Below, one piece after another: positions 12,595 through 15,592 of a stretch of DNA of 64,000 nt. This DNA is from Candidatus Borrarchaeum weybense. GTDB lineage: Archaea; Asgardarchaeota; Sifarchaeia; Borrarchaeales; Borrarchaeaceae. The position numbers and the translations under genes were made by a program. The stretch's first letter is position 1, and each line of letters begins with the position of its first letter. The stretch covers positions 160,001 to 224,000 of the forward strand of contig JAHQJS010000004.1 in assembly GCA_019057385.1 (NCBI GenBank). The letters are read 5' to 3'. The notes under the pieces are model-generated. The model worked only from the letters and a program-made list of their open reading frames with translations, was not told where the DNA came from and did not search any database.

Positions 12595-14100
12595 CTACGT
12601 TTTATGATAATCATCAATTCTCCCGGCTTTCATGAAGGAGGAAGAACCAGCCTTAAGGTTATCGGGCTGTGCGCTCGTCACCGAGTTCAACACATACTTC
12701 ATTAATACTGCTTTTTTCAGTATTTCGGCAGTCTTGAAGGACGTTATCCCGCTGTGCTCAAAGAGGTCATGGATCATCGACCAGCTACGGTAAGGACTGC
12801 CCTTTTTCAAATGAGGCTCTATAAACTCCTCAACTTGTGAGAGCACCCAATTGTAGACGGCTAGAAATGCTTCCTTGAAACCCAGCCCTCTTCGAGCTAT
12901 TACATAACTTGCTAAGTGATGGGTTGACAAATTATGTAATCCTGAATAGGAGTATCTGCCGATGATAGAGGTATATCCCGGGAATACCTTTCGAAAGGAC
13001 ACACCGCGCTTTTTGCATTTTCGCTCTAACAGTTGCAGGGCGGTGGTCTTCATATTGCTTAATTTTCGGTTGCGTTTTGTATTATAGGAAAATTCTTGCT
13101 CGAATTGTAAGTCCTCGACCACGATTCCCTTGCCCTTATTGATGCAGTAATTGACGATTTTATCCATTTTGTAGGAAATATAATCATTACGTTTGTCGGT
13201 TCGATAGTTGTGCAGGTTGTTAAACGAGATGCTATGATAGGAGAGTAAATTACCGTGTGTATCCACATTGGTTAACGCCGCAAAATTATAGTTAAAATCC
13301 AAGCCGATGGCGCCATGTTCGTAGCCGTAACGTGGTGGCGGCTCTGGAATCTCATAGGACACATGGACAAAATAGCGAGTTTTCCCCTTGAAGAACTTTC
13401 TTTTGACGGTCACCGTGTATTTGTCAGCATTAAGAATCTGCTGAAACCATTTTTCCTGTACTAGGTTTACGGACATAGGAATGATCAGCCACTTGCGTCC
13501 CTTTTGCTTGGAAAAGGTGCGTATCTTGACGGTTTTATCGGGCAATACTTTGAGGTTCACGTTCTTCAATCCTTGTTGCTTCTTTCCGATGCAACTGAAG
13601 GATGAGTCCCGTCGTATCCTGAACTCTTCCCTACTTATGGTGTCGCGTATTCTCTGCCTGAATAATTTCTTGGTGCCGAATACTACGGGTTCGAGATGTA
13701 AATTGTGTAGTTTCGCCATGATCGAGGATCTGCGGGCGTATAAGCCCTTCAATCGTCTGTCATGTGTGTTTTGCTCCTTTATTTTGTTGATTTTTTTGGT
13801 AATGACTGTTAACTGCTGTGCCATGCGTTTGCGTTGTTTTTTTAGCCAGGTCTTTTGTGAATCCAGTTTCATCTTGTTATCAATCAGGATGGTGTTGACA
13901 TAGGGGTTGTTATGACATAGCCCCATCAAACATTGTTGGATGGTTTTGCCTTCACCGAAGCGTGTTGCCATGTAGTCTTCGCCATGAAACAACAGATTAT
14001 AGCCGATGCGTTTCATACGGTTATAGCTAGTGAAGATCTCATGGAGCTGATGTTCTTGTGCCTCATCGGGATATATTCTGAATTTGACGGTCTGTATCAT
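12595..14100 (-). mobile_element. tnpB: IS200/IS605-type TnpB-related RNA-guided nuclease gene, non-autonomous (no tnpA)
   Basis: N-terminal TVKFRIYPD...Q; RuvC-I GLDFN, RuvC-II VVEDL; C-terminal YTS...HHLASYVIARRG without a Zn finger. Visibly more GC-rich than the flanks. SD AAGGAG before ATG 14100. Confidence 0.85.
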
Positions 14101-14404
14101 AGTGATCGACTGCTCCTTTATCTTATAGTAGGCTTTATTAATAAACCCCGCACTTTTAGGAGTACCTCGCACTATATCGTGTCTCTGAGCATATCGGTCA
14201 CAGAAAATATTAGTTATAGCTGCTGCTACTCTATGTCGATGAATCCTTCTTAATGAGTATCGGCTTTACACTGCTTGATCTGCTGAAAAAATGGATTGTA
14301 ACCAATGGAGGAGGACTACAATGCCTGTAAAAAACGTATGGATCATAACGCGAACGTGCATTGACTTTTTAATAAAAATAGTTAATCTCAACTATATATT
14401 TAGT

Positions 14405-14436
14405 AAAAGAAGATATAAAAGGGGTGCATTCCCCTC
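14405..14436 (-). terminator. Hairpin + U-rich tract after the SECIS
   Basis: Minus strand GAGGGG-AATGCA-CCCCTTTT followed by ATATCTTCTTTT. Confidence 0.5.
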
Positions 14437-14437
14437 C

Positions 14438-14474
14438 GTCACTTTCCTCCAGAAGTTTATAAGGAAAGATCACC
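14438..14474 (-). promoter_or_regulatory. Eukaryote-type SECIS element candidate
   Basis: Minus strand GGUGAU-CUUUCCUU-AUAAACUUCUG-GAGGAAAG-UGAC: UGAN/NGAN quartet, 8-bp helix, AAA in the apical loop. Lies about 20 nt after the stop of a UGA-containing ORF. Confidence 0.65.
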
Positions 14475-14494
14475 CGTTTGAACTTATAATCAGA

Positions 14495-14878
14495 TTATAT
14501 CCTGCAACTACCATATCCGGCTCTCACGGGTCGGCTAACGTCAACAATATACAATTGTTTTAAGCCCCAATTACCACGTACATCGACTCGCACTTTGTTA
14601 GGAAGGTATGATTCCACTCTTGGTCCCATATAAAGATTCAGCCCGTTATTTTTTCCAATTACAGTAAATTGCTTGTGTTTTTTTAATTTCTCTTCGTCAA
14701 CCAGACTTGCCTCAGGCGAGATGAACGTTCCAGATCAGGAAGATGAGACATTGAGCCAAAGAACCAGTGCAACTTTTGTGTCATTAGATTGTTTTGTTTG
14801 TTTTGTTTGTTCTGAGAGCCATTGTGTTGCCTTATCAGTTAAAGAAACCTCTAATAGAGCCACCTCACTATGTTTCAT
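14495..14878 (-). CDS. HesB-like / CC-Se-motif family selenoprotein, 127 aa, Sec at codon 48 (absent from the ORF track)
   Basis: Manual translation: MKHSEVALLEVSLTDKATQWLSEQTKQTKQSNDTKVALVLWLNVSSS-U(TGA 14737-14735)-SGTFISPEASLVDEEKLKKHKQFTVIGKNNGLNLYMGPRVESYLPNKVRVDVRGNWGLKQLYIVDVSRPVRAGYGSCRI. Both halves fit one HesB-like fold pattern. Confidence 0.72.
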
Positions 14879-15013
14879 GTTTGTAATTGTCCATAATTAT
14901 GACATTGTTATATCAATGGTCTCTTCTTAGTGATTAAAAGGTGACGAATCTGGCAACATCAAGATCCATTTTCTTCAAGTATCTCTAATTAACTAGTTAA
15001 TGCCTCTTTTCTG

Positions 15014-15592
15014 CTACAATGGATATGTTTCACTCCATTCGAAATCTGTGTCAAATTGCGCTTGCGTGAGTTCCCCATCAATTTCGAAGACAGTACAATA
15101 AAAACGATTTCCGCCCTGAGAAGGTTTTTCATCTTCCCATCTATCAATTTTAAAGGAACTCATAAACAACGTGTCGTTAAGTTTAATACGAAGTATTATT
15201 TTGTAATCTCCACCAACAGAGAATGTATATTTGATGTTTAAAAATTCACCTTGTGTGCTTGTAAGTCTTACTGTTACAGGACCGCTTTGAAGAAGAAGTT
15301 GAGTTCTAAATTCATCGTTTTGATCGTTGTCTATGCTTAAATCGTAATCTCCAGAATAATCAGCATCGAAGTATTCAATGATCTTCTGAAAATGTATGTA
15401 TTCAAAGTTAAGTTCAGTTTCAGGGTACTTTCGAAAGTAGAAATAGGGTTGATTTCTTGAATAATAGAATACAAAAGTATCCATTTGATAGCTATTAGAA
15501 TCGGCAATTAGTCTATCATTGATTGCAAATGCTGGTACGCTTAAAGACAAGAGAAAAATCAACAAAAATAGAGAAAGTGCATTTTTTTTCAT
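15014..15592 (-). CDS. Secreted hypothetical protein
   Basis: Signal peptide MKKNALSLFLLIFLLSLSVPAFA; beta-rich mature region. Confidence 0.7.
   Translation of the reverse strand: MKKNALSLFLLIFLLSLSVPAFAINDRLIADSNSYQMDTFVFYYSRNQPYFYFRKYPETELNFEYIHFQKIIEYFDADYSGDYDLSIDNDQNDEFRTQLLLQSGPVTVRLTSTQGEFLNIKYTFSVGGDYKIILRIKLNDTLFMSSFKIDRWEDEKPSQGGNRFYCTVFEIDGELTQAQFDTDFEWSETYPL

Follow-up and report, generated by a model that had tools for sequence, protein, structure and literature searches.

A probable selenoprotein gene of predicted IscA fold, followed by a loki-type SECIS element, in an Asgard archaeon

The locus and its neighbourhood

The window analysed here, a stretch of 64,000 nucleotides (C4:160001-224000), is part of a genome assembly of 4.18 Mb in 8 contigs. 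The host is a Borrarchaeum (Sifarchaeia/Borrarchaeales), an Asgard archaeon that does not belong to the Lokiarchaeota. On the minus strand of the window, a coding sequence of 127 codons plus TAA was found at 14495..14878, with an ATG start at 14878 and the final TAA at 14497-14495. Translation of this frame confirmed the hidden gene described in the first-pass annotation: the only internal stop is the TGA at codon 48 (14735..14737), within SSS-U-SG, and sequence conservation among homologues extends to both sides of it. An ordinary listing of open reading frames splits the frame into pieces of 47 and 44 residues, and gene callers end the product at the TGA, which gives a 47-residue protein (P0020). 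Read through the TGA, the protein has the C-terminus GSCRI with the cysteine third from the end; the GSC described earlier as terminal is present but does not close the protein.

The start codon may be either the ATG at 14878 or the in-frame GTG at 14863 (14861..14863), a candidate alternative start that is conserved in the homologues. In L019, in the second gene of L051 and in L065 there is no upstream in-frame ATG, and the start is the GTG within a conserved GAGGTG. A TATA-like box, GATATAAC, is located on the same strand at 14907..14914, 29-36 nt upstream of the ATG. Motifs resembling it occur at the same distance in L017, L049 and L051, and judged from sequence and position it may represent the promoter of the gene.

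The order of genes around the locus is shared with L049, L020 and L051 and comprises a gene for a 192-residue signal-peptide protein, the selenoprotein gene, a gene for a 107-residue membrane protein and one for a 222-residue coiled-coil protein. In the window, a further gene lies between the terminator of the selenoprotein gene and the 107-residue gene. It is of the IS605 OrfB type (12595-14172, minus strand) and encodes a 525-residue protein with an IS605 OrfB helix-turn-helix (TnpB-like). This gene is absent from the syntenic L049 and L020, and the synteny with L049, L020 and L051 shows that it was inserted downstream of the terminator.

A syntenic remnant of the selenoprotein gene was detected at L020:3001-3260 and L021:767-1030. 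The N-terminal two thirds are missing and the Sec codon is lost, such that the promoter region now runs straight into the final 41 codons, while the SECIS and the hairpin behind it are intact. The gene is therefore dispensable in some lineages. The genome investigated here also contains a paralogue of 111 residues at C6:502434-502766 (C6:502370-502766 with its SECIS; locus L042:171-582, minus strand). It reads G-K-U-S-K-T-C around its TGA and has, about 25 nt after the stop, an AUGA-type SECIS of its own with a hairpin.

The in-frame TGA and the selenocysteine machinery of the host

The first-pass annotation had proposed that homologues should be inspected for Cys or Sec at position 48. The TGA was found at this column of alignment A5 in 16 of 16 homologues (22-89% identity), which come from at least five families of the phylum, and the Sec column was one of only five invariant columns in an alignment in which identity to the window protein drops to 22-27%. 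Among the recovered Asgard homologues, no Cys form was seen at the Sec column. Close relatives of the window gene are present in L017 and L022, and a homologue in L018, 49% identical, carries the same in-frame TGA. When 400 genomes of the phylum were scanned with a profile, matches were obtained in 11 genomes of five families, with one in-frame TGA in each match; L057, which has an extra internal TAA besides the TGA, was set aside. A search of 1.8 billion representative proteins returned only fragments that stop or start at the TGA, and the corresponding contigs show the same in-frame TGA. A related-locus search with the window protein found nothing.

L019, L051 and L052 contain two tandem paralogues, one of the G-C-U and one of the S-S-S-U type. 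At L051:2007-2830, at L052:551-1380 and in L019, the C-U-type and S-U-type genes are 50 nt apart and a single SECIS follows the second gene.

Sediment, marsh and mangrove metagenomes of more than 10 studies contain the gene. In four metagenome runs the TGA and the SECIS were unchanged and no variants were seen at the Sec codon. A single 253-nt contig of a 94%-identical relative, found in an RNA library, reads across the TGA and is weak evidence of transcription.

Relative to L049 and L051b, dN/dS by the Nei-Gojobori method was 0.18-0.21 downstream and 0.22-0.25 upstream of the TGA. A ratio of about 0.2 means that the part of the frame after the TGA is maintained as coding sequence by purifying selection. 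The gene could in principle be a decaying pseudogene, with the TGA as a true stop and the downstream frame as an untranslated relic, and this would agree with the 47-residue product of the gene callers, the truncated remnant at the same locus in a relative and the IS605 OrfB-type element that adjoins the gene. We regard this as very improbable given the selection on the downstream part, the retention of the TGA in 16 homologues down to 22% identity, a predicted fold that requires both halves of the protein and the conserved SECIS behind the gene.

The components of the selenocysteine machinery that the first-pass annotation had listed as a check were all encoded in the genome. SepSecS scored 490 bits, a PSTK-like kinase 186 bits and EFSec, whose gene directly follows that of the kinase, 286 bits, above the cut-off; SelD itself has an in-frame TGA. 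The tRNA-Sec, with a 9-bp acceptor stem, a UCA anticodon and the discriminator G, was found by a hand-written stem search at C6:464919-465040 (minus strand). It was missed by Rfam RF01852 and by aragorn because an intron of roughly 33 nt interrupts the T loop of the gene. A T-loop intron in tRNA-Sec has been described for Lokiarchaeota (PMC4989117).

TGA ends 29% of the frames of at least 300 codons in this genome and most conserved genes have no internal TGA, from which it follows that TGA is a normal stop that is recoded only locally. This bears on whether the UGA might be read through as something other than Sec, by a near-cognate tRNA for Trp or Cys or by a local change of the code. Two full-length database proteins have Trp at the Sec site, but these entries turned out to be gene callers' products in which TGA was read as W under code 4, and they were rejected. 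Recoding as such is known from the group, as Borrarchaeaceae recode UAG as pyrrolysine (PMC9723677), and a call by aragorn of a tRNA-Pyl with anticodon CUA at C7:143743-143811 (minus strand) fits that report. With TGA in ordinary use as a stop, the recoded site at the position of a catalytic or ligand Cys and a SECIS behind the gene, there is only a slight chance that the codon is read as an amino acid other than Sec.

The SECIS element and the adjacent hairpin

The RNA element behind the TAA was located exactly where the first-pass annotation had placed it. It occupies 14439..14473 on the minus strand and is of the loki type (eukaryote-like, type I). In the direction of transcription it consists of GUGA (14473-14470), a 5′ arm of 9 nt (14469-14461), an apical loop of 11 nt, AUAAACUUCUG (14460-14450), which reads A-N-AAA...G, a complementary 3′ arm of 9 nt (14449-14441) and GA (14440-14439). 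GUGA and GA flank the stem as in the RUGA/GA tandem G.A quartet. There are 21 nt between the TAA and the GUGA, and the distance from the UGA to the element is 262 nt, within the range of 30-500 nt reported for UGA and SECIS (PMC9723677). The published lokiSECIS consists of AUGA, a 9-bp stem, an 11-nt loop with initial adenines and an ultraconserved final G, and then GA or AA (PMC4989117), and the geometry of the window element equals it position for position. GUGA cores have been recorded in Asgard genes (PMC11227280). The comparison with the 3′-UTR elements of Lokiarchaeota drawn in the first-pass annotation holds for the element and not for the host, which is a Borrarchaeum.

Alignment A3 brought together nine elements from distant family members. 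All eight Watson-Crick pairs were paired in every one of the nine, and six of the eight showed compensatory double changes across lineages. The covariation score was reached by none of 500 shuffles, and slid controls scored far lower. The G, A and U-G-A core positions were invariant in the nine elements, as were A1, A3-A5 and the final G of the loop. The element is present behind every full-length family member with an assembled 3′ end. It hardly varies between close relatives (86% column identity, well in excess of the coding region), and for this reason no covariation was seen among them. In L059:1872-1914 (genome G274) the core is ACGA instead of RUGA and the other features are intact; this is either a real variant or a sequencing error.

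A covariance model derived from A3 found the elements of the held-out members L061 (E = 3e-4) and L058 (E = 4e-3). Searched genome-wide, it found only the two family copies; the elements of the Prx and Grx-like genes gave weak hits at the right places (E 0.6-0.8) and those of VhuD were missed. An independent SECIS model was not obtained since the elements of unrelated genes could not be aligned by MAFFT. A strict descriptor gave 5 sites in the 4.18-Mb genome compared to 0-5 in shuffles, the window site being the only one with all eight pairs. As this count is no higher than in shuffles, chance could account for the motif taken by itself. With Rfam (E <= 10, 13500-15500) no SECIS was detected and only two snoRNA-like matches, due to chance, appeared, and in single-sequence folding the 3′ UTR was not more stable than shuffles (z = -0.5). 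The element nevertheless goes far beyond chance, since the TGA is kept in 16 homologues, the stem covaries and the same element is found behind other TGA genes.

Those other genes in the same genome are VhuD, Prx (F-I-U-P-T), a Grx/AhpF-N-like gene (U-P-F-C) and the paralogue; the VhuD genes have TGA at the known Sec positions. Their elements also weigh on whether the stem-loop could be something else, such as a general kink-turn, an L7Ae-binding structure or one associated with the terminator, placed behind the gene by coincidence. GA-quartet stem-loops do occur in box C/D RNAs and rRNA, a relaxed scan gave two rRNA-like matches, and the strict count does not exceed that of shuffles. Still, in this genome and its relatives the same geometry stands 0-45 nt behind VhuD, Prx and Grx-like genes with TGA at the known Sec position and accompanies the family wherever the 3′ end is assembled, which makes a coincidental structure highly improbable.

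At C4:638607, C6:186407, C6:507480 and L055:1869, the UGA stop of the gene is also the UGA of the AUGA core, and coding sequence and SECIS consequently abut without a spacer. Within C5:171400-171600 (L047), a short frame was also noticed that is followed, at C5:171523, by a well-formed loki-type SECIS and its terminator hairpin. This frame reads ...C-S-F-R-G-U-G-A-S-P-W followed by a hydrophobic stretch and, going by its sequence, may encode another unlisted small membrane selenoprotein.

One nucleotide after the SECIS, a GC-rich hairpin with the loop AAUGCA is followed by UUUU (14417..14437, minus strand), in agreement with the terminator hairpin noted in the first-pass annotation. The terminator scan gave 2 terminators against 0.4 expected, with this hairpin among them. 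It is invariant in seven relatives. A hairpin of strict definition was found after 4 of the 7 SECIS elements of the genome compared to 0.7% of control windows behind long open reading frames. The hairpin is likely the 3′ end of the transcript and possibly a second module of the SECIS.

Besides the window, hairpins stand 0-8 nt after a SECIS at C4:638560, at C6:186445, at C5:171560 and in the C4:1215500 region. Their loops often contain UGC[A/G], with AAUGCA in the window gene, SelD and one VhuD, and UAAUGCA in L061. In L060, L058, L046, L047 and L045, both hairpins are held within a three-way junction closed by a lower stem.

Flank complementarity gave a combined p = 9e-5, with the window copy not significant. 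The minimum free energy fold has a lower stem that pairs the stop-codon region with sequence after the hairpin; in the window copy this stem was no better than shuffled flanks (p = 0.37). The earlier reservation that helix I below the quartet looked weak thus stands.

Protein fold, proposed role and comparison with known systems

The protein is predicted to adopt the IscA/SufA (HesB) fold. AlphaFold2 on alignment A5 gave a pLDDT of 83 and a pTM of 0.74, with the Sec in the turn that joins strands 36-47 and 50-61, such that one beta-hairpin spans the TGA. The ten best PDB matches by Foldseek were all IscA/SufA/HesB, among them 1r94, 2d2a, 1s98 and 1x0g at probability 1.00, and the top match had a TM-score of 0.52 normalised to the query and 0.63 to the target. 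PDB searches by sequence gave no match. In the profile alignment the Sec falls on Cys35 of E. coli IscA, in its S-G-C-S-G loop. In place of the three ligand cysteines of E. coli IscA, C35, C99 and C101, the window protein has the first position as Sec and a single C-terminal cysteine, Cys125. A canonical PF01521 gene was not found in the genome.

Profile similarity spans the TGA and does not stop there, as the first-pass annotation had considered it might. NF041239 matched residues 37-111 (E = 9e-5, 22.5 bits against a cut-off of 40) and PF01521 matched residues 10-102 (E = 0.007, 17 bits against a gathering score of 26.3). Of the 16 family members, 10 matched NF041239 and 9 matched PF01521; the C-U paralogues in L019 and L051 reached 40.0 bits with NF041239, exactly the cut-off, and precomputed PF28096 matches fall on C-terminal halves. 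The suggested kinship with HesB-like and CC/Se-motif proteins is borne out by the fold and by these weak matches, but the window protein scores below the CC/Se cut-off and has S-U in place of C-U. The protein is thus only distantly related to the CC/Se motif family of bacteria (NF041239), and the gene is a new archaeal branch of the CC/Se / HesB-like superfamily. The partner cysteine varies in position within the family, being adjacent to the Sec (C-U), four or five residues after it or in a C-terminal G-x-C. Such a mobile partner fits a selenol/thiol pair for redox or for binding of a metal or cluster.

The homologue, machinery and SECIS checks were all favourable to the unannotated Asgard selenoprotein proposed at the outset, and we consider it highly probable that this is a genuine selenoprotein gene of 127 residues in which UGA encodes Sec. 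From these comparisons we infer that Sec is actually inserted, how the SECIS works in Asgard archaea and what the protein does, as follows. The mRNA would start from a promoter immediately upstream of 14878 and end near 14417, at the hairpin with its U tract. The UGA at codon 48 would be decoded by Sec-tRNA(Sec) delivered by the archaeal EFSec, and the kink-turn-type SECIS, which lies 262 nt further down in the 3′ UTR, would direct the recoding. The predicted fold places the Sec at the tip of the beta-hairpin, the position of the first cluster-ligand cysteine in A-type carriers, and the sole partner cysteine, Cys125, lies in the flexible C-terminal tail. We tentatively propose that the two form a selenol/thiol pair that serves in redox chemistry as a selenylsulfide centre or binds iron, an Fe-S cluster or another thiophilic metal as a pair of ligands. 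A wider reading, in which an Asgard-specific family without a Cys form in the homologues recovered replaces the missing IscA/SufA carrier, with the selenolate as Fe-S or metal ligand and a two-hairpin SECIS, is rather unlikely. The two-hairpin SECIS of this reading would comprise the kink-turn stem-loop, the GC-rich hairpin and sometimes a three-way junction with the lower stem; no such module is described in the published SECIS models examined.

Asgard archaea are a reference point for the origin of the eukaryotic selenocysteine system. Their known selenoproteins are SelD, FrhA/VhuU, HdrA, FrhD/VhuD and the Prx-like, AhpF-N-like and DsbA-like proteins (PMC4989117; PMC9723677; PMC11227280). 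The catalogue is short, with seven Asgard families in a 2024 survey and eleven archaeal families in a 2026 review in which NF041239 is tabulated without an archaeal mark (PMC13188914), and all were found by homology to known selenoproteins. The family described here is absent from the Asgard lists (PMC4989117, PMC9723677, PMC11227280), as the first-pass annotation had thought possible, and in the Asgard and prokaryotic selenoproteome literature we found no record of it in archaea; one may exist elsewhere. The homology approach missed this family, which several Asgard lineages carry and for which the relatives that can be detected include no Cys form. Its SECIS elements, including ones with GUGA and ACGA cores and one shared by tandem genes, are therefore independent examples, which can be used to test models of SECIS evolution. 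Annotation pipelines shorten the gene to 47 residues. Since Borrarchaeum genomes hold an IscA-fold protein only in the selenium form, a concrete biochemical question is posed.

The bacterial CC/Se family (NF041239 / PF28096), first predicted in Moorella thermoacetica, likewise consists of small proteins, about 100-130 residues long, that carry their Sec in the same loop. Its members have C-C or C-U, whereas the window protein has S-S-S-U and G-C-U appears only in the tandem partners of relatives. The CC/Se family is listed for bacteria and uses an in-frame bacterial SECIS, as opposed to the 3′-UTR loki-type SECIS of the window gene. IscA/SufA/ErpA (PF01521) share the fold, and the Sec is at their first ligand Cys; their C-terminal C-x-C pair is represented in the window protein by the single Cys125.

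The window protein shares its superfamily with the HesB-like selenoprotein of Methanococcales and bacteria (TIGR01911), and both are selenoproteins found in archaea whose SECIS is in the 3′ UTR. The HesB-like protein differs in its UxGP motif, where the window protein has U-S-G-T, and in a SECIS of the euryarchaeal GAA_A type, where that of the window is of the loki type. In the NCBIfam scan, assuming that the release contains the model, none of the 16 members matched TIGR01911 at E <= 0.1.

With the lokiSECIS and the eSECIS-like type I elements of Asgard archaea (PMC4989117, PMC11227280), the window element shares the RUGA...GA core, the 9-position stem, the 11-nt loop and the place just 3′ of the stop. 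The published lokiSECIS core is AUGA, whereas the window has GUGA, its relatives AUGA and one of them ACGA, and the first stem position of the window SECIS is U.U, unlike in lokiSECIS. HdrA and VhuD share one SECIS, and so do the tandem genes of L051 and L052.
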